Shown here one piece after another: positions 2,205-55,466 of a DNA stretch of 64,000 nt. The notes beneath the pieces are model-generated. The model saw only the letters and a program-made list of their open reading frames with translations, did no database searches and had not been told where the DNA came from. How positions within the stretch are numbered: the stretch's first letter is position 1; each line of letters opens with the position of its first letter. Source of the stretch: Candidatus Falkowbacteria bacterium (lineage in GTDB: Bacteria; Patescibacteriota; Patescibacteriia; UBA11705; JACRDX01); NCBI GenBank assembly GCA_043798985.1, contig JAZDOE010000008.1, positions 2,332 through 66,331 on the forward strand, read 5' to 3'. Both the position numbers and the translations under genes were made by a program.

Positions 2205-5200
2205 CTAAAACGCGTTGGCGCCCAGAACCGCGATTATTCCTTTTTTAAGCGGTTCTGCCATTGAAACCTTAAAATTCGTCTTAACAAACTTTTCGCCAAC
2301 GCGCAAATATACGATGAAATCTCCGGGGTTAGCTAAAAATAGCTCCTTAACTTTCGCCGCAAGCTCTGGCGTGGCATTCGCAGGATAATTTATTACCACG
2401 TGTTTATCTTCATTTTTTTCCTTGTTTCGCCAAAAATTATTGGTCTTAAAATTTCCCTCATCTGCCAAAATTTTCTTTATATCCGCACGGCTTTCCTGCA
2501 AAATTTCCCAAACTTTATTGGCAATTATTCTTGGACTTTCATCCTTGTCTGTAATTTCGCCGAATACAGCAATCATTTTCCCTTCAACAAGCAACGTTGA
2601 CTTATCTTTATACAACCTAGGAAAAATGATTACCTCAACGTTTCCACTAAAATCTTCCAGCTTCAAAAAAAGCATTGGCTCGCCTTTTTTCGTAATAATC
2701 TTTTTTGTCACGCCAACGACGCCTGCAATTTTAACATGACCATCGGTAATTGTTTTTTTGATAATACTATCAATCGGCCGAACCAGCCCGCGCAATTCCT
2801 CGCCCACGCCATTAAACGGATGGTCAGAAATATACAATCCAAGAAATTCTTTTTCCCAATCCATTTTTTGCCACTTGGTCACCTCCTCTTTGATTTCCAT
2901 ATTTAGCGGCATGTATTTGATATTTGTTTTTCCTGTATTGTCGCCAAATAAACTTACCTGCGGATTATTTTGCTGTTCATCAACAAGTTTTGCATAACTT
3001 AAAATTTTATCAACATTATGAAGCAACGTATTTCTATTTGAAAAAGCATCAAACGCTCCGCTTTTAGTCAGTCCTTCAATGGACTTTTTGTTCAAATCCT
3101 TTGACTTCACGCGATTTAAAAAATCCTCCATACCAACAAATTTGCCGTGCTCTTTGCGCTCTTCTGTAATCGCCCTTACCACATTTTCGCCAACATTACG
3201 AATAGCGTTCATCCCAAAACGGATTGCTGGTTTTCCCTGCGACAAACTTTCAGCAACAACGCCAAAATTACTAAAACTTTCATTAATATCCGGCGGTAAA
3301 ATTTTTATGCCCATTTTCTTACATTCATCAATTTCACTCGCCACCCGCTCCATGTCTCCCTGATCAGAAGTCAAAAGAGCCGCCATAAATTCAGCCGGAT
3401 AATTGGATTTCAAATACGCTGTCTGGTACGCGATTAACGCGTAGCAAGCCGCGTGGCTGCGGTTAAAGCCATAACCAGCAAACGGCTCAATAAATTTGAA
3501 AACCTCTTCGGCCTGCGACTTTGAAACGCCCTTGACTATGCACCCTTTTATAAATTTCTCTTTTTGTTCTGCCAAAAGCGTGGCAATTTTTTTACCAATA
3601 GCTTTTCTTAAAATATCCGCCTCACCAAGTGAAAAGCCGGCCAAATCTCTAGACAATTGCAATAATTGTTCCTGATAAACTGCAATGCCATAAGTTTTTT
3701 CCAAAGAATTTTTCAACAATGGATGAAGATATTCAACTTTTTGCTTGCCATGCTTGCGCTTAATAAAATCTGGAATCAACTCCATCGGACCCGGACGATA
3801 CAGCGCTACCATCGCGATTAAATCTTCAAATTCGGTCGGCTTCAGCTGGCGCAAATATGAACGCATGCCATCAGATTCAAACTGAAACACGCCGGTTGTG
3901 CGGCCATCCTGAAAAAGTTTATAAGTTTTTTTGTCGGCAAGCGGAATATTATCAATGTCAACGTTGGTTTTATGAATCGCGTAAATGATTTTTGAGGCGT
4001 GTTCCAAAATCGTCAAATTTTTTAAACCCAAAAAGTCCATTTTCAAAAGCCCTAAATCTTCAATTGGATGCAAAGAATATTGGCTGATAATATTTTCGTC
4101 ATTGCCGCTGGCATATTGAAGAGGAACAAAATTATCCAGCGGTTCTGGGGCAATGACCACGCCGCAGGCGTGGACAGAAGAATGGCGCGCCGCACCTTCT
4201 ATTTTTTTTGCCAAATCAATTACGCGGCGCGCCTGCTCATCATTTTCATAAATTTCTTTGACTTCACTAATCTTAGCAACGGCCTGACTTAATGAAGTTC
4301 CGCTTGGAATTAATTTTGAAAGTTTGTCACAAAAAGAATATGGCACGTCAAGCACGCGCCCAACATCACGAATCGCGGCGCGCGCTGCCATTGTTCCAAA
4401 TGTAATAATTTGCGACACACGGTCTTTTCCATATTTTTGCTCAACATAACGCAGAACCTCATCACGCCTAATATCCGCGAAGTCAGTATCAATATCAGGC
4501 ATTGAAATTCTCTGCGGATTTAAAAACCTCTCAAAAAGCAATTCGTATTTTATCGGATCAAGATTTGTGACATTAATCAAATAAGAAACAATACTGCCTG
4601 CGGCCGATCCACGACCAGGGCCAACAACAATGCGATTATTTTTCGCCCAGTTTATAAAATCCTGAACAATCAAAAAATAACCCGCGTATCCTGTTGTTTT
4701 AATTACTGACAATTCATATTCTATCCGATCAATCACCGCCTTCTGCGCATCGGTCAACGACTTTGTCGTTGGATTAAACCCATAACGTCGCTCAACATTC
4801 GCATAACAAAGTTCTCTTAAATATTCAAATGGATCTTTCGCGCATGGAACCTCAAACGTTGGCAGTAAAATTTTTCCGAGTTCAATTTGCAAATTGCATT
4901 TGTCAGCCACCAGCATTGTGTTTTCAATAACATCCGAATGCTCACGAAAAAATCCTTCCATTTGGCTGGTCGCGAAAAAAGAAAAATCTTCTCCGAGCAT
5001 TGACAGCCTGCCCATATCGTCACGCTTTTTCTTTGTCTGCAAGCATAGCAAAACATCGTGCGCTTCAGCGTCTTCAGTATTCAAATAATGTACGTCATTT
5101 GTCGCGACAACCTTAATATTATGTTCGCGACCAAGTTCAAAAATTGTTTCATTAACCGGCTGTTGATCCGGAATGTTTGGATTATATTGAACTTCCAAAT

Positions 5201-21729: not shown

Positions 21730-21806
21730 TGGTGGTCGCACCTGGGCTCGAACCAGGGACCTTTCGGATGTGAACCGAACGCTCTAACCAGCTGAGCTAT
21801 GCGACC
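21730..21806 (-). tRNA. tRNA-Val (anticodon CAC), with CCA encoded.
   Basis: Reverse complement GGTCGCATAGCTCAGCTGGTTAGAGCGTTCGGTTCACATCCGAAAGGTCCCTGGTTCGAGCCCAGGTGCGACCACCA. Confidence 0.8.
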
Positions 21807-22038
21807 TTTGTAAATATTTTTCTACTCGTTTCCTTAAATATCCTCGGCCAAAACCCGTTTTTAATTGTCGCTCCCTTTTCATTGCATCGTCCTTCACTAA
21901 ACATACCTCGTAATACGCCATCTCTATGCTCCCCATCCTGATCGTAGTGTGCGTTTTGCCCGAGAGATGCTCTGCCAATCTCCTTTCTAAGTTCCCTGTA
22001 CATCCAACATAAAACCTATCTAAATCTTTGCTATACAT
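21784..22038 (-). CDS. Small GIY-YIG nuclease-domain protein (UPF0213 / YhbQ-like, about 84 aa). Its reading frame runs into the 5' part of tRNA-Val(CAC).
   Basis: From the internal ATG at 22038: MYSKDLDRFYVGCTGNLERRLAEHLSGKTHTTIRMGSIEMAYYEVCLVKDDAMKRERQLKTGFGRGYLRKRV, which shows the GIY..YIG..R..H..E fold hallmarks. The stop codon is the TAG in the tRNA D-loop (GGTTAG). Confidence 0.6.
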   Translation of the reverse strand: MYSKDLDRFYVGCTGNLERRLAEHLSGKTHTTIRMGSIEMAYYEVCLVKDDAMKRERQLKTGFGRGYLRKRVEKYLQRSHSSAG

Positions 22039-22045
22039 ACCACAT

Positions 22046-22162
22046 ATCTTTTGCGCTCCCCGCCCAAAGCCCGAAGGGCATTGTGGCGGGCCCGCCAGAC
22101 TGCGAAGCTGTCGGCGGGTAACCAGCCCCAAGGGGGCCCCTTCGGGGCTGAGCTATGCGACC
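22046..22162. mobile_element. GC-rich structured element followed by a 16-nt duplicate of the tRNA-Val(CAC) 5' end. It forms the terminal portion of a tRNA-linked insertion.
   Basis: CCCCGCCCAAAGCCCGAAGGGCATTGTGGCGGGCCCGCC...CCCCAAGGGGGCCCCTTCGGGGC, then GCTGAGCTATGCGACC, the reverse complement of tRNA nucleotides 1-16. The motif is homologous to 44692..44897 and 46596..46672. Confidence 0.45.
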
Positions 22163-22782: not shown

Positions 22783-22960
22783 TTGGTGGGCACAGATGGA
22801 CTTGAACCATCGACCCCCGCCTTACCCGCCTGCCAGAGTCTGTGGGCGCAACTGGACTCGAACCAGTGACCCCCGCCTTATAAGGGCGATGCTCTAACCA
22901 GCTGAGCTATGCGCCCACAGACGGCGGGCAGGTAAGGGCGGTGCGGCTATGTGCCCATTA
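22783..22960 (-). other. Composite tRNA locus: a complete tRNA is embedded between the two halves of a tRNA-like sequence. The outer 5' acceptor strand GGGCACA and the outer 3' half with T-arm and CCA are complementary, and the flanks are imperfect inverted repeats.
   Basis: The reverse complement of 22783..22846 is ...GGCGGGGGTCGATGGTTCAAGTCCATCTGTGCCCACCA, a perfect T-arm plus acceptor plus CCA. The reverse complement of 22948..22954 is GGGCACA. Flanks CCGCCTTACCCGCCTGCC and GGCGGGCAGGTAAGGGCGG are near inverted repeats. Confidence 0.3.
22843..22916 (-). tRNA. tRNA with anticodon TAT, Ile-type and unusual in bacteria. It is the inner gene of the composite locus.
   Basis: Reverse complement GGGCGCATAGCTCAGCTGGTTAGAGCATCGCCCTTATAAGGCGGGGGTCACTGGTTCGAGTCCAGTTGCGCCCA. 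Anticodon stem TCGCC/GGCGG, loop CTTATAA. Confidence 0.55.
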
Positions 22961-44447: not shown

Positions 44448-44536
44448 TCAGTTTCCTTTATCAAATGCCATATTATAACTCTAATCACAAAATGTCAATA
44501 AAAACAAAAAATGCCCAACAATGAGCATTAACTTAA

Positions 44537-44611
44537 TCGGGCTAGGCAGATTCGAACTGCCGGCCTCACCCACCCCAAGGGTGCGCGCTAACCAAACTGC
44601 GCTATAGCCCG
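44537..44611 (-). tRNA. tRNA-Pro (anticodon GGG).
   Basis: Reverse complement CGGGCTATAGCGCAGTTTGGTTAGCGCGCACCCTTGGGGTGGGTGAGGCCGGCAGTTCGAATCTGCCTAGCCCGA. C1-G72 pair and G37. Confidence 0.75.
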
Positions 44612-44619
44612 TTCCTATA

Positions 44620-44691
44620 TCCTCTCGGAAGGAATCGAACCTTCATCGCAGGTTCCGGAAACCTGTGTTCTATCCATTGAACTACGAGAGG
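44620..44691 (-). tRNA. tRNA-Arg (anticodon CCG).
   Basis: Reverse complement CCTCTCGTAGTTCAATGGATAGAACACAGGTTTCCGGAACCTGCGATGAAGGTTCGATTCCTTCCGAGAGGA. Confidence 0.75.
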
Positions 44692-44897
44692 GTAAATTGT
44701 GTTCCCCGCCCAAAGCCCAAATGGCATTGTGGCGGGCCCGCCTGCTTGCCGCCCTTGGCGGCTGGCGGCGGGTATCCATTGAACTACGAGAGGGTAAATT
44801 GTGTTCCCCGCCCAAAGCCCAAAGGGCATTGTGGCGGGCCCGCCTGCTTGCCGCCCTTGGCGGCTGGCGGCGGGTATCCATTGAACTACGGGAGGGG
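44692..44897. repeat. Two tandem 102-bp direct repeats, each made of a GC-rich structured element plus a 22-nt copy of the tRNA-Arg 5' end (acceptor and D-arm).
   Basis: TATCCATTGAACTACGAGAGGG occurs at about 44671, 44773 and 44875. The GC segment shares CCCCGCCCAAAGCCC-AA-GGCATTGTGGCGGGCCCGCC with 22046..22085. The four overlapping ORFs in the track are artefacts of the repeat. Confidence 0.7.
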
Positions 44898-44902
44898 AAA
44901 AA

Positions 44903-44986
44903 TGCCGCGAGTGGGAGTTGAACCCACACACCCTTGCGGGCACACGGCTCTGAACCGTGCGCGTCTGCCGATTCCGCCATCGCGGC
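44903..44986 (-). tRNA. tRNA-Leu (anticodon CAG), long variable arm.
   Basis: Reverse complement GCCGCGATGGCGGAATCGGCAGACGCGCACGGTTCAGAGCCGTGTGCCCGCAAGGGTGTGTGGGTTCAACTCCCACTCGCGGCA. Confidence 0.75.
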
Positions 44987-46471: not shown

Positions 46472-46488
46472 ATTTCAAAGGTAGAAAA

Positions 46489-46562
46489 TCGGGGTGACCC
46501 GACTTGAACGGGCGACCTCACGCACCCGAAGCGCGCGCTCTAGCCAACTGAGCTACACCCCG
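46489..46562 (-). tRNA. tRNA-Pro (anticodon CGG).
   Basis: Reverse complement CGGGGTGTAGCTCAGTTGGCTAGAGCGCGCGCTTCGGGTGCGTGAGGTCGCCCGTTCAAGTCGGGTCACCCCGA. Confidence 0.75.
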
Positions 46563-46595
46563 AGTTTCTACCCCACGAAAAAATGAGTACCTTTA

Positions 46596-46672
46596 CCCCG
46601 CCATCGGCGGGGCGAAGCGTGCGCGCTACCAACCCCAACGGGGCCCCTTCGGGGCCGCGCTAATCCCCGAAA
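46596..46672. repeat. Degenerate third copy of the tRNA-linked GC-rich element, upstream of tRNA-Pro(CGG).
   Basis: On the minus strand: CGGGGATTAGCGCGG (a degenerate tRNA-Pro 5' fragment) followed by CCCCGAAGGGGCCCCGTTGGGGTTGGTA. Compare GGTCGCATAGCTCAGC + CCCGAAGGGGCCCCCTTGGGGCTGGTTA at the tRNA-Val locus. Confidence 0.4.
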
Positions 46673-46885: not shown

Positions 46886-47671
46886 CTATTTCTCCGGCAC
46901 CTTTTCTCCATACACACCATTAACCGGGTGCATAGAATCAAAGCGCATCAACAGCATGCCATGCGTACTGCGCCCAAAGTCAAACCGTTCATTCCCTCCG
47001 CCAACTTTGTCGAAGCAGAGAGCGTTCCCTTGGTCAAAAAACGTCATGCCCCGCGCAAGGGAAAATCCGACCGCAGCATACACCAATGCCCGCGCAGTCG
47101 GAACAATCTCTCTTTCAACACTACCCGCTGGCAGTGTCGTCTTGCCAATCAACCGCCAGCAAGGCGCAGCCGCTTTGGCAGTAAACCCAAAGACAAATGG
47201 CTCTCGCTCAAACACGCTCGCCTGATCCACGTGATGAAACAACGATATGTTTGTTTCAAAAAGCTGCTTGATTGAGATGCCGAGATCAGCGACAAGCACA
47301 TGCGTGTGCTGGTATTTCAACAACTCTTCAAGCGAGTATGGGATCTTTTCCAACGCTGTGAAAACTTCGGGCGACGGCGCAGCTCCAAGAAAAATGATCG
47401 CCTCTTCCAACCCGAAAAAATGGCGCGCCATTGCCTGCCGCGCTGCCCAATGGCTGGCTGGTCTTTGTCGCGTCTCTGTCTTGCGAGTCGCAGGATCAGT
47501 CACCGGAATGTTTCCGTCCATGATGCGTTGCCGCAAAGCAATCTCATCCAGCGCTTCTTTAGCCGAATTAACAAACAACGCGCTCGGCTTTTCCATGACC
47601 ACCCCCCTTGTTTGCAATAGCCAATTCAAAGAACAACGCCCTATCTTAGCATTCAATTTTAAAATCGTCAA
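46886..47671 (-). CDS. Hypothetical protein in a GC-rich island; family not recognised.
   Basis: 261-aa ORF with a probable internal start MEKPSALF at 47596. GC content and codon usage differ from flanking genes. Confidence 0.35.
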   Translation of the reverse strand: MTILKLNAKIGRCSLNWLLQTRGVVMEKPSALFVNSAKEALDEIALRQRIMDGNIPVTDPATRKTETRQRPASHWAARQAMARHFFGLEEAIIFLGAAPSPEVFTALEKIPYSLEELLKYQHTHVLVADLGISIKQLFETNISLFHHVDQASVFEREPFVFGFTAKAAAPCWRLIGKTTLPAGSVEREIVPTARALVYAAVGFSLARGMTFFDQGNALCFDKVGGGNERFDFGRSTHGMLLMRFDSMHPVNGVYGEKVPEK

Positions 47672-52588: not shown

Positions 52589-53665
52589 CTACTTGCCCGC
52601 CTCTACCGAGGCGGGCGAGAGCGCGACCAACCCACCCGCGAAACTGCCACGAGCACCATCAAGACTCTGACTGCCATAGAAGTAAGCGTCATCACCATCG
52701 GCAAAGCAAAAGAGCGACCAGCCGCGCCACGCAAGCGCTGCCATGTCATAGCACGGCGTCTTGTTGTCCCGCAGCAGTTCTGCCGCGTACATACTCATTG
52801 CTGCCAGCGTATCCAATCCGCCTGCAAGCATGAACATTTCCGGCAAGGTTTCCATCTGCTCTCTGTCTGCATTGATGGAATATCCCTGCAGCGCGGTCGG
52901 GAAGTAAATCCCCACCACCGGCTCCTTACTTGCCGCTTCCAACACTCTCTCATGTCTGCTTCCCGCCCAGATTGTCACTTCTCCGGCAAGCTGCCCCGTG
53001 ATATTGTTGTGGAAGGGACGGTTGGGAAACGCCTTCGTGTATGCTCTTGCCACTGTTGGCACAAGCACCTTGTCCAGCTTTGCCCCGTAGTTTGCCGCCG
53101 TCACGCCAAGCCCTGCCGGAATGCAGAACGGGTACCATGCGCCTTTCAGCACATTCTTAACCGTTTCATCTGCTTCAATCTTCTGCACTAAAGCGTTGAT
53201 GCGCAGTGCGAACTCTTCGGCAGACACAAACTCCAACTTCTCGTCGACAAATGCTTCTTTCGCAAGCACCAATCTTTCGGCAAAGGACAACCGCTCTATC
53301 CGCGTCGGATAGTAACCGTAATTCGCGTCGCATACCGAGCTTCTCATTCCGGTCGGTGGGATTCTGCGGCCATTCTTGTCATAGACCAGCGTTGGCGTCG
53401 GCTCTATCACCATCTCGTTTGGCCCCATGAAAATCGCGTGCATTTCACCCGACAGCAAACAATCAACCACCGATTCCCCAAGCTTGTTCTCCAACAGCTC
53501 AAGATGCCCGAGCGTTCTCTGAGGATACTTGGCAGGATCTCCGGACCGCTTCATCTGCGTGAGCGTTGCCAGCACCGCATCTGCGCCACCGTGCAAAGCC
53601 ACGTAATCCACGATATCCGCGACCGTCAACTTCTTCCACCCGTCACAACTCATAGCATCCTCCAT
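52589..53665 (-). CDS. Conserved hypothetical protein, GC-rich, paralog 1 of a duplicated gene.
   Basis: 358 aa. The C-terminal 260 aa are about 85-90% identical to 54516..55466 (for example LEAASKEPVVGIYFPTALQGYSINADREQM, AAELLRDNKTPCYDMAALAWRGWSL). No family recognised. Confidence 0.5.
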   Translation of the reverse strand: MEDAMSCDGWKKLTVADIVDYVALHGGADAVLATLTQMKRSGDPAKYPQRTLGHLELLENKLGESVVDCLLSGEMHAIFMGPNEMVIEPTPTLVYDKNGRRIPPTGMRSSVCDANYGYYPTRIERLSFAERLVLAKEAFVDEKLEFVSAEEFALRINALVQKIEADETVKNVLKGAWYPFCIPAGLGVTAANYGAKLDKVLVPTVARAYTKAFPNRPFHNNITGQLAGEVTIWAGSRHERVLEAASKEPVVGIYFPTALQGYSINADREQMETLPEMFMLAGGLDTLAAMSMYAAELLRDNKTPCYDMAALAWRGWSLFCFADGDDAYFYGSQSLDGARGSFAGGLVALSPASVEAGK

Positions 53666-54488: not shown

Positions 54489-54516
54489 GTAGAGCCGAGA
54501 TATATCTCGGCTCTAC
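54489..54516. repeat. Family B palindrome, copy B2 (GTAGAGCCGAGATATATCTCGGCTCTAC), abutting the stop codon of paralog 2.
   Basis: Perfect palindrome; differs from B1 by a compensatory A/T to C/G change. Confidence 0.6.
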
Positions 54517-55466
54517 TACGCGAGGGCGACCAAACCGCCGGCGATATAGTCATAAGCACCCGCAAGACGCCGACCGTCACGGAAGAAGGCAGAAACATCA
54601 TAAGCATAGCAATCGAGCGACCAGCCGCGCCAAGCGAGCGCTGCCATGTCATAGCACGGCGTCTTGTTGTCGCGCAGCAGTTCTGCCGCGTACATACTCA
54701 TTGCGCACATGGTATCCAACCCACCTGCAAGCATGAACATTTCCGGCAAGGTTGCCATCTGCTCTCTGTCTGCATTGATGGAATATCCCTGCAGCGCGGT
54801 CGGGAAGTAAATCCCCACCACCGGCTCTTTGCTTGCCGCTTCCAGCACCCTCTCATGCCTGCTTCCCTGCCAAATCGTCACTTCTCCGGAAAGCTGACCG
54901 TTGAGATTGTTGTGGAAGGGACGATTGGGAAACGCCTTCGTGTATGCTCTTGCCACTGCCGACAAAAGCACCTTGTCCATCTTATCCCCGTAGTTTGCCG
55001 CCGTCACTCCGAGCCCTCCGGGGATGACGAACGGGTACCATGCGCCTTTCAGCACGTTCTTAATCGTTTCGTCCGCCTCAATCTTCATTACCAGCGCATT
55101 GATGCGCTCAAAAAACTGCTCAACGGACACGAACGTCAGCGACTTGTCATTGAACACCTCCTGCGCCAATTTCAGCTTCGCGCCAAACGGCAACTGCTCA
55201 AGTCGCGTCGGGCAGTAACCATAGTTCGCGTCGCACACCGAACTTTTCATCCCCTGCGGCGGGATTCTGCGCCCGTTCTTGTCATAGACCAGCGTCGGCG
55301 TCGGCTCTATCACCACCTCATGCGTCTTGTCACCCTGAGGCTCTCGAAGGGCGACCACTCTGACCGTCAGCTCGCCGTTCGCAATTTTGCGCGCAATTTC
55401 CGTGCCACCGAGACGATTCAACAATGCTTCGTCCTCATTGCGCATCCAGTCACCATACTTTCCCAT
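54516..55466 (-). CDS. Conserved hypothetical protein, GC-rich, paralog 2; its N-terminus contains a family A palindrome insertion.
   Basis: 316 aa; VVALREPQGDKTHEV is encoded by 55329..55355. Confidence 0.5.
   Translation of the reverse strand: MGKYGDWMRNEDEALLNRLGGTEIARKIANGELTVRVVALREPQGDKTHEVVIEPTPTLVYDKNGRRIPPQGMKSSVCDANYGYCPTRLEQLPFGAKLKLAQEVFNDKSLTFVSVEQFFERINALVMKIEADETIKNVLKGAWYPFVIPGGLGVTAANYGDKMDKVLLSAVARAYTKAFPNRPFHNNLNGQLSGEVTIWQGSRHERVLEAASKEPVVGIYFPTALQGYSINADREQMATLPEMFMLAGGLDTMCAMSMYAAELLRDNKTPCYDMAALAWRGWSLDCYAYDVSAFFRDGRRLAGAYDYIAGGLVALA
55329..55355. repeat. Family A palindromic element, copy A3 (GTCACCCTGAGGCTCTCGAAGGGCGAC).
   Basis: In-frame within paralog 2. Confidence 0.55.

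Follow-up and report, generated by a model that had tools for sequence, protein, structure and literature searches.

A tandem array of tRNA-Arg fragments split by a GC-rich double hairpin in a tRNA operon of Candidatus Falkowbacteria

Introduction

The locus described in the present study is a tandem array of partial tRNA-Arg genes, each split by a GC-rich double hairpin that we refer to as element E, in the genome of a Candidatus Falkowbacteria bacterium (GenBank assembly GCA_043798985.1). The whole stretch of DNA that was analyzed, hereafter the window, comprises 64,000 nt of contig JAZDOE010000008.1 (positions 2,332 to 66,331 of the forward strand). Several described systems may be placed beside it. 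Rickettsia palindromic elements (RPEs) are reportedly short palindromic repeats in a reduced genome. Repetitive extragenic palindromic (REP) sequences, together with bacterial interspersed mosaic elements (BIME) and REPIN, are extragenic, have a conserved GTAG head, and are moved by the REP-associated tyrosine transposases (RAYT), which are of the Y1/HUH type. In Allomyces, the atp6-ORF360 insertion is a free-standing endonuclease insertion that carries a replacement gene end.

An overview of REP, BIME, REPIN, and RAYT is available (PMC3184786). Yeast mitochondrial GC clusters have an AG target that is duplicated (PMC4478555), and double-hairpin elements (DHEs) of Allomyces, GC palindromes flanking tRNA genes in Neurospora, and tandem arrays in yeast are cited in the same work (PMC4478555). 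Among nucleases, SegB is a GIY-YIG endonuclease of the tRNA cluster of T-even phages that recognizes a conserved motif in tRNA-coding DNA (tDNA) (PMC2330249). Its 27-bp recognition site has been mapped and is centered on the T-psi-C motif, and the enzyme spreads itself together with neighboring tRNA genes (PMC2330249; PMC13096335). Besides the catalytic activity of SegB, uvsX and uvsY, which are recombination genes of the phage, are required for the tandem amplification of a tRNA-containing segment (PMC13096335). We found no description of element E or of a cassette combining GIY-YIG and tRNA genes from bacteria of the Candidate Phyla Radiation (CPR) in the searchable literature. A CPR-wide hairpin module, an insertion hot spot between tRNA positions 21 and 22 (21/22), and a minimal GIY-YIG gene translationally fused to a tRNA gene thus appear to be undescribed.

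Results

Layout of the Arg Array

All tRNA genes of the window lie on the minus strand. Read on that strand, the order is tRNA-Leu, a 7-nt spacer, (a-E-b)(a-E-b)(a-b-rest), tRNA-Pro, and a terminator-like hairpin. Here, a consists of TTTAC, the last 5 nt of the native Leu-Arg spacer, and tRNA-Arg positions 1-21; b is tRNA-Arg positions 22-28 (GAACACA); and E is a 68-nt GC-rich double hairpin that sits flush between A21 and G22 without a target-site duplication. Together, a and b represent a 34-nt piece of the Arg locus (-6 to +28). E is missing from the last copy alone, which continues into the complete tRNA-Arg(CCG), and both E-bearing copies end at tRNA position 28, the stub after E being equal to the local tRNA-Arg at 7 of 7 positions. 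The features are as follows (L numbers denote related loci in other assemblies).

44903..44986, minus strand: tRNA-Leu(CAG), upstream neighbor in the Ala-Leu-Arg-Pro operon (ARAGORN; Rfam, 52.3 bits; 100% identical to the L066 orthologue)
44896..44902, minus strand: Leu-Arg spacer TTTTTCC, a variant of the native TTTTTAC (comparison with L066)
44875..44895, minus strand: fragment 0, a copy of tRNA-Arg 1-21 with C at position 5 (CCTCCCG...) (repeat finder, 92%; blastn, 95%)
44807..44874, no strand assigned: element E copy A, a 68-nt double hairpin (pattern match; fold, -51.3 kcal/mol)
44800..44806, minus strand: stub A, GAACACA, equal to tRNA-Arg 22-28 (sequence, alignment)
44794..44799, minus strand: junction ATTTAC, in which TTTAC is a copy of the native spacer end and A is a novel base (comparison with L066)
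44773..44793, minus strand: fragment 1, tRNA-Arg 1-21, the same as in the intact gene (blastn, 100% over 21 nt)
44705..44772, no strand assigned: element E copy B, 68 nt, one mismatch to copy A (repeat finder, pattern match, fold)
44698..44704, minus strand: stub B, GAACACA, equal to tRNA-Arg 22-28 (sequence)
44692..44697, minus strand: ATTTAC directly 5' of the intact tRNA-Arg (sequence)
44620..44691, minus strand: intact tRNA-Arg(CCG), the presumed functional gene (ARAGORN; Rfam, 68.1 bits; perfect acceptor stem)
44510..44611, minus strand: tRNA-Pro(GGG) at 44537-44611, then a terminator-like hairpin at 44510-44529 (operon end)

Tandem Repeats Finder (TRF) reported 44671-44900 as a tandem repeat with a period of 102, 2.3 copies, 97% matches, and zero indels. 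The two 102-nt copies were 99% identical in a repeat finder, with T at 44722 versus G at 44824 as the sole mismatch, and a 26-nt segment holding the tRNA-Arg 5' end was present three times, its outermost copy at 92%. The outermost fragment thus shows 2 differences in 26 positions, as against 1 in 102 between the two full units. Folding of E in the array gave two adjacent hairpins, with energies of -51.3 (44807..44874) and -48.5 kcal/mol (44705..44772), while the 80-nt stretch that includes copy B had a minimum free energy of -48.6 kcal/mol (z = -4.5).

An earlier note on this DNA, made from the letters and a list of open reading frames (ORFs), had described two tandem 102-bp repeats between tRNA-Arg(CCG) and tRNA-Leu(CAG), a description on which TRF, the repeat finder, ARAGORN, and Rfam agree. 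The threefold repetition of what it took for a 22-nt tRNA-Arg 5' end is real, but the repeated piece consists of 21 nt of tRNA plus the TTTAC flank. Similarly, its 80-nt GC unit is a GC-rich structure, but a composite one, made up of the 68-nt E (44705-44772, 44807-44874), GAACACA, and ATTTAC. The note also placed a related element at the tRNA-Val locus and the break at the edge of the D loop. Both points are borne out: a 39-nt GC-element pattern has three exact matches in the window (22058, 44704, and 44806) and none in 100 shuffles, a 53-nt stretch is 87-89% identical between the Arg-locus and Val-locus elements, and the break point lies at the D-loop/D-stem boundary, exactly after tRNA position 21, at both loci. 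Four overlapping ORFs across the array, which the note had called artifacts, are indeed spurious; they occur on both strands and extend across three or four tRNA genes. No GIY-YIG ORF is present in 44692-44902, where all ORFs are spurious, and no remnant of a nuclease gene is visible in the Arg units, which hold local sequence only apart from E.

The Orthologous Operon in Relatives

Relatives were reached by a homology search with the RimK protein adjoining the operon, which is 100% identical to a RimK of a Candidatus Falkowbacteria MAG; a look-up of the exact protein had given no hit. In another Falkowbacteria locus (L066, RimK 91% identical), the order is Leu-TTTTTAC-Arg-Pro with no insert, the TTTTTAC abutting CCTCTCG, and the Leu and Pro tRNA genes are 100% identical to those in the window. 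A more distant relative (L068 and L070, RimK 80% identical) has Ala-Leu-Arg-Pro with a 2-nt Leu-Arg spacer, again with no insert. Since the 204-bp block is absent from the orthologous operon in L066, L068, and L070, it represents a recent, lineage-specific gain. The direct contact between TTTTTAC and CCTCTCG in L066 also identifies the TTTAC before each repeated Arg copy as native flank. Fragment 0 occupies the expected place of the original gene start, at the native distance from tRNA-Leu; its C5 would pair with G68 of L066, and the intact tRNA-Arg in the window has T5-A68. The fragment may be either an older allele or a copy in decay.

Because the terminator-like hairpin after tRNA-Pro marks the end of the operon, the array units lie inside the transcription unit. 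The Arg array contains no T-run, no promoter-like site, and no predicted terminator, which rules out E as an intrinsic terminator or promoter. The Arg units are probably a pair of non-functional scars, and our confidence in the anatomy of the array and in the membership of its hairpins in the E family is high.

Element E as a Hairpin Family

E is a multi-copy hairpin family found in many CPR (Patescibacteria) lineages. An exact 20-mer from E had 20 metagenome hits, 7 of which were true copies; the other hits (approximately 13) were chance matches to archaeal tRNA-Lys 3' ends or to high-GC genomes. A single-hairpin pattern was found at 39 loci in approximately 25 metagenome-assembled genomes (MAGs), one of which had at least 8 copies. 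These MAGs were labeled Saccharibacteria, WWE3, Gribaldobacteria, Uhrbacteria, Falkowbacteria, Spechtbacteria, Moranbacteria, and others. Viral contigs yielded zero matches to the single-hairpin pattern, and a phage origin of E was rejected on this basis. In an Rfam scan of the locus, hits were confined to the four tRNAs at gathering thresholds and remained so at an E-value ≤ 1; no family for E was found.

The module may be written as CCCGCC-n-NAA-n-[variable hairpin]-n-TTN'-GGCGGG; in detail, it runs CCCGCC, one base, a 3-bp NAA/TTN' stem, T, a variable inner hairpin, T, and GGCGGG. Modules usually occur in pairs joined head to head at the palindrome GGCGGG/CCCGCC, and the whole of E is architecturally symmetric for this reason. 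The size is 28-45 nt per hairpin and 56-90 nt per pair, E is very GC-rich against a genome of 40% GC, and both orientations were seen. Mid-stem pairs were CAA/TTG, GAA/TTC, AAA/TTT, ACA/TGT, and CAC/GTG, with an outer pair of C..G or T..A, in a tally biased by the fact that modules had been pre-filtered for perfect pairing. The unbiased evidence for the hairpin architecture is provided by the partner hairpins, which lie outside both search patterns and all fold, with differing mid-stem and inner-stem sequences. The inner stems vary freely yet remain complementary.

Genomic Settings of Element E

Approximately 20 of 50 E copies lie in long ORFs, in either orientation. Insertions that leave the frame open are found in the genes for YebC (L008), the N-terminus of ribosomal protein L23 (L001), and the tail of S16 (L005), among others. 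A "two-stretch" Pfam match in NDK was checked as a possible further hairpin insertion and is not one.

In a second setting, E lies at tRNA 21/22 (TA/GAGC or TA/GAAC) in redundant or partial tRNA copies, at 16 or more loci, including those listed here.

Window Arg and Val loci
L003 (Arg-TCG); L014, L018, and L050 (Arg-GCG)
L030 (Val-GAC); L039 (Val-UAC)
L052, three times (two Val-UAC copies and one Ile-GAU copy)
L058; L060
L063 (Ile-UAU); L072 (Ile-GAU)
L073 (Val-CAC); L075 (His)

Other tRNA sites are the D loop of Gly tRNAs (L028, L035, and L054) and the anticodon loop at 35/36 (L062). The E-bearing tRNA copy is usually partial, with a stub of 4-9 nt on one side of E; that of L030 is a full-length hybrid with mismatched acceptor halves. 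A complete copy of the same tRNA adjoins the E-split copy wherever the contig is long enough (L060 stops 28 nt into the downstream copy). The E flanks have no single tetra- or pentanucleotide in common and show no target-site duplication. GAR adjoins 31 of 70 non-redundant elements on one side, versus approximately 6% by chance. Many of these are the tRNA events themselves; this preference still provides a sequence reason for the hot spot at 21/22. The third setting of E is directly 5' of a GIY-YIG gene of approximately 85 aa.

A further array was noted in contigs that are 99.6-100% identical to one another: L014 and L018 have one copy and L050 (3850-4400) two copies of a 141-nt unit, [spacer + GGATA + E + tRNA-Arg(GCG) 22-76], located 3' of the intact gene as a mirror image of the array in the window. 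The copy difference is either a copy-number polymorphism or an assembly collapse.

GIY-YIG-tRNA Cassettes

The Val locus of the window has the following features.

22119..22162, minus strand: copy of tRNA-Val(CAC) 1-21 with a 22-nt mini double hairpin (22126-22147) in the D loop
22059..22118, no strand assigned: element E, 60 nt, with the conserved hairpin as at the Arg locus and a different variable hairpin
22052..22058, minus strand: stub GAGCGCA, of the cassette type; the local tRNA has GAGCGT
21784..22045, minus strand: GIY-YIG nuclease gene, frameshifted (Pfam PF01541; alignment to L060)
21730..21806, minus strand: intact tRNA-Val(CAC) (ARAGORN, Rfam)

The nuclease ORF at this locus encodes a GIY-YIG domain (PF01541, E-value = 8.5e-13). 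Compared with L060 and its protein P0001, the gene has lost 11 nt immediately behind ATGTGGTA. This deletion shifts the frame and takes away the first beta-strand motif, so that the nuclease is probably dead. The stop codon TAG of the gene is that in the D-loop GGTTAG of the intact tRNA-Val. Homologues of the ORF are 84-103 aa long, a profile search returned 2,085 cluster representatives at an E-value ≤ 1e-10, most of them single-domain, and the nearest solved relatives are UPF0213 proteins.

Contexts of L060, L062-L065, and L072-L075 were sampled through the GIY-YIG protein alone, while loci L021-L059 had been fetched through E. In the protein-based sample, the order [tRNA 1-21][E][stub][GIY-YIG][tRNA] seen at the Val locus recurred in unrelated CPR assemblies.

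L060 (71% identical to the window ORF): [tRNA 1-21][E][stub][GIY-YIG][tRNA]
L063 and L064 (Ile-UAU): layout as in L060
L073 and L074 (Val-CAC): layout as in L060
L075 (His): layout as in L060
L062: an old tRNA-Val with matching acceptor halves, its D loop split by [GIY-YIG + a complete, different tRNA-Val(CAC)]
L065: nuclease gene amid two hairpin-bearing tRNA-Asn stubs
L072: GIY-YIG-tRNA-Ile, then an E-split 3' copy (GGTA, E, and positions 22-76)

The nuclease stop codon lies inside the tRNA in 8 of 10 cassettes (the exceptions being L065 and L075), either as TAG at tRNA positions 8-10 or as TAG or TAA in the D loop. The stub GAGCGCA is common to the Val locus, L052, L060, and L063, and travels with the cassette in the window and L052, as indicated by its mismatches to the local tRNA at these two loci. 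In L054/L012, a 3' remnant of a nuclease gene and a tRNA-Gly stub lie 5' of a second complete E-nuclease-tRNA cassette. L062 is the clearest case of tRNA gene replacement. In its case (2980-3520), the halves of the old tRNA-Val(CAC) were recognized as GGACGCA... and ...TGCGTCCACCA, and an 86-nt double hairpin lies at 35/36 of the old 3' part. Separately, nuclease genes end in ...TATTTACAA, and ATTTAC of the Arg array was considered as a nuclease-gene 3' remnant; this idea was dropped because the native TTTTTAC spacer abuts the gene in L066.

Gene callers often start GIY-YIG ORFs inside the hairpin, as in P0001 (MPILGFGRGAQEY followed by MWYVY). Database sequences of this family are often too long because an ATG inside E is taken as the start. 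N-terminal extensions that represent the translated upstream hairpin (MPILGFGRGAQEY..., MRSFWRG..., AVRRARQNAKLSAG...) were noted in P0001, P0018, P0168, P0170, P0171, P0183, P0186, and P0227. Their counts are a lower bound: a narrow motif list gave 3 of 48, and approximately 10 translated hairpins were recognized by eye.

Other Features of the Window

At 22784-22956 on the minus strand, an intact tRNA-Ile(UAU) (22842-22916) occupies the anticodon loop of an outer tRNA-Ile-like gene that is degenerate; the 5' part of this outer gene (22931-22956) is devoid of a D arm, and its 3' part (22784-22824) ends in CCA. The junctions carry the GC arms TGCCCGCCGTCTGT and CAGACTCTGGCAGGCGGG, and the locus gives the impression of a tRNA gene that was replaced from the inside, with no nuclease gene present. 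The minus strand also has a pseudo 5' half of tRNA-Pro (46596-46669), which lies 5' of the intact tRNA-Pro(CGG) at 46488-46563, with a 22-nt mini double hairpin (CCCCGAAGGGGCCCCGTTGGGG) in its D loop and the hairpin CCCCGCCGATGGCGGGG at 35/36. This mini double hairpin was seen at one other place, the corresponding D-loop position of the Val fragment (22126-22147), and in 0 of 75 fetched loci. Directly 5' of the tRNA-Pro pseudo-fragment, a 261-aa ORF (46886-47671, minus strand; GC 0.46-0.49) has no Pfam match and may be mobile-element cargo.

The window also contains a 300-nt direct repeat of 86% identity (52616-52915 and 54519-54818) in a stretch of raised GC (0.46-0.52). It lies in the paralogous ORFs 52589-53665 and 54516-55466, which have no Pfam hit. 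Short palindromic repeats are CTTGTCATCCTGAGGCTCTCGAAGGATGACCA, with 4 copies, and CCGTAGAGACGAGATATATCTCGTCTCTAC, with 3 copies.

Discussion

The best explanation for the Arg array, which we consider reasonably probable, is that a single tRNA-Arg stub split by E arose and that recombination out of register later made a second copy of its unit. The A/GAR site in the D arm of tRNA-Arg would have been struck by E itself or broken by the nuclease associated with E, and the only surviving products may have been those that regained an intact gene beside the E-split stub through recombination or template switching, yielding (a-E-b)(a-b-rest). The direct 26-nt repeats may subsequently have allowed one round of out-of-register repair, through unequal sister exchange or synthesis-dependent strand annealing, that doubled the 102-bp unit. 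This duplication may have been stimulated by a nuclease, as with the T-even GIY-YIG enzyme SegB. The units would now be non-functional relics that are probably co-transcribed in the Ala-Leu-Arg-Pro operon and discarded in tRNA processing. One event followed by duplication is favored over two insertions because the units differ at 1 of 102 positions and the outermost fragment at 2 of 26; the two successive insertions envisaged by the earlier note fit these differences less well, while its other suggestion, repeat-templated slippage, is compatible with the data, as is unequal recombination. Tandem arrays also occur in an independent lineage, with one or two copies of a 141-nt unit (L014 and L018 versus L050). 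We have moderate confidence in the duplication history and low to moderate confidence in nuclease causation at the Arg array, which is inferred.

Several points weigh against this explanation. The Arg array (44692-44902) holds no nuclease gene or recognizable remnant, and the only GIY-YIG family member of the window, that at the Val locus, is frameshifted. Cleavage specific to tDNA is unproven for a protein of approximately 85 aa that consists of a catalytic domain only and has UPF0213 as its nearest solved relative. The adjacency of E and GIY-YIG is in part a matter of ascertainment because L021-L059 were fetched through E. The junction base A of ATTTAC is left without an explanation, and the copy number is derived from one assembly. 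Moreover, a spontaneous 34-bp duplication followed by a neutral insertion of E, which is a serious rival, fits equally well, with the stub and flank both being local.

In its full form, this rival dispenses with a nuclease at every step: a 34-bp tandem duplication (-6 to +28) arose spontaneously, an E element resembling REP/BIME or the palindrome-associated elements (PATE) of IS200/IS605, with a mobility that depended on another enzyme, for instance a Y1/HUH transposase, landed without harm in the stub, which was redundant, and ordinary replication slippage, or else unequal crossing-over, at the 26-nt repeats gave rise to the second unit. The lack of a target-site duplication and the preference for a short flanking motif are in its favor, both being typical of HUH-type hairpin elements, as are the dispersal of E in protein genes far from any GIY-YIG gene and the strong hairpins, which would favor replication slippage. 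However, partial tRNA copies with E at 21/22 and a stub of 4-9 nt recur at 16 or more loci, which is hard to reach through independent spontaneous duplications, and E abuts the GIY-YIG start in cassettes that were found through the protein alone; on balance, we regard a wholly nuclease-free origin as unlikely. A mini-cassette without a nuclease, composed of E, tRNA-Arg 22-28, a short spacer, and tRNA-Arg 1-21, could instead have been inserted twice at 21/22 with the target regenerated each time, and the array structure is formally the outcome of two such rounds. L054/L012, in which a nuclease remnant and a tRNA-Gly stub precede a second cassette, resembles successive events, and the stub GAGCGCA goes with the cassette at the Val locus, L052, L060, and L063. 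Nevertheless, all bases of the Arg unit outside E are local, including TTTAC, with nothing foreign or nuclease-derived, the 1-in-102 difference between the units fits a copy of a copy, and no active nuclease is visible in the window. The minimal nuclease-less cassette proposed by the earlier note was thus not demonstrated, and we consider its double insertion improbable. The note's view of the element as tRNA-targeting is too narrow, since E is a dispersed hairpin repeat that also occupies protein genes with an open frame.

Two further readings concern the status of the units rather than their origin. The source is a metagenome-assembled genome, and in the sister case, one versus two units in contigs that are 99.6-100% identical may reflect collapse or true polymorphism; the true unit number in the window may, accordingly, be one or another, with the second copy resulting from mis-assembly or mixed strains. 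The units differ at one base and the outermost fragment at two, so that at least two distinct junction contexts exist, and the structure of fragment, E, and intact gene is independent of the copy number and recurs in many independent assemblies, which makes an artifact slightly more improbable still than the double insertion. Alternatively, the units may be functional RNA, namely, a processed small RNA, a processing or regulatory structure of the tRNA operon, or a decoy tRNA-Arg 5' half: their position is internal to the operon, and neither a promoter nor a terminator is predicted between its tRNA genes, so that they are probably transcribed, their folds are very stable (z = -4.5 and -5.3), and the hairpin shape is kept across the E family. 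Against a function, the operon of the closest relatives is devoid of the block, E occurs in protein genes in either orientation, no Rfam family matches, the outermost stub is already gathering substitutions, and at one stem position the non-transcribed strand has a T-G wobble where the transcribed strand has a C-A mismatch. We regard a functional RNA as very improbable, more so than any of the readings above.

Other candidates were rejected. A tRNA intron, whether group I or archaeal bulge-helix-bulge, is incompatible with E copies truncated at position 28, no ribozyme or Rfam hit, and a bacterial genome; the introns known from CPR tRNA genes belong to group I and interrupt the anticodon loop (PMC13011429). 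An att duplication or island left by an integrase was dismissed because the 102-bp unit has no ORF and the duplication covers the 5' end together with the native flank upstream of it. A miniature inverted-repeat transposable element was rejected on account of the flush insertion between A21 and G22, with no duplicated bases.

Returning to a single E-split stub and its duplication, the locus may be part of a wider phenomenon. We tentatively propose, as a possibility that we hold with less than even conviction, that E and the GIY-YIG protein of approximately 85 aa constitute an undescribed mobile system of CPR bacteria. In such a system, a minimal, possibly structure-specific nuclease would cut at A/GAR, the hairpin pair would mark or seal the break, and a replacement part of the tRNA would be rebuilt or imported ("gene-replacement homing"), which would let the system persist in tRNA genes that are essential and single-copy. 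E-split stubs and tandem arrays would be its scars, and free hairpins would spread non-autonomously into protein genes. In many tRNA genes, the D-loop/D-stem junction is itself an A/GAR site.

The Arg locus probably represents a clean and small case of a streamlined genome tolerating an attack on a single-copy essential tRNA gene, with the damaged piece retained as a stub and the intact gene rebuilt alongside. If the link between hairpin and nuclease is causal, this will offer a testable system for target recognition by a GIY-YIG enzyme consisting of the catalytic domain only, and will bear on the horizontal replacement of tRNA genes and the origin of small insertions in CPR proteins and RNAs. 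From a practical point of view, gene callers are misled by these loci through spurious ORFs, nuclease starts placed inside the hairpin, and missed tRNA fragments.

Comparison with Known Systems

E resembles RPEs, REP/BIME, and mitochondrial GC clusters in behavior; it fails the defining features of each and is filed under none of them. Like E, RPEs interrupt both protein genes, leaving the frame open, and RNA genes, and either orientation is seen. The likeness is one of behavior only, because E is present in CPR hosts, differs in sequence, is shorter and very GC-rich, has a fixed CCCGCC/GGCGGG clamp, and shows a sharp preference for tRNA 21/22 as well as a link to GIY-YIG. REP/BIME share with E the GC-rich imperfect palindromes, often inverted doublets, that are multi-copy, make no target-site duplication, and act at the level of DNA hairpins. 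In contrast to REP, E lies inside genes and tRNA copies, has no GTAG, is flanked by A on one side and GAR on the other, and has a GIY-YIG gene as its neighbor.

Mitochondrial GC clusters and DHEs are likewise GC palindromes of double-hairpin shape in an AT-rich, compact genome, located near tRNA genes and mobile endonuclease ORFs, and present as singles and as tandem arrays; the yeast clusters have an A/G-type target. E is bacterial (CPR) rather than organellar and shows no AG-type target duplication, and the comparison provided no evidence of common descent.

Regarding the nuclease, SegB and the CPR cassette have in common a GIY-YIG gene embedded among tRNA genes. The CPR protein has approximately 85 aa, is chromosomal, and is translationally fused to the tRNA 5' end, and the CPR scars differ from the situation in SegB in that they lie in the D arm with a hairpin element at the junction. 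The Allomyces atp6-ORF360-type insertion corresponds to L062, L030, and the Val and Ile loci of the window in that part of an essential gene is displaced and substituted and the old fragment persists as a pseudogene. In the CPR loci, the target is a tRNA gene and the replacement is tRNA-derived, and in the Arg array, this arrangement is found without an endonuclease gene.

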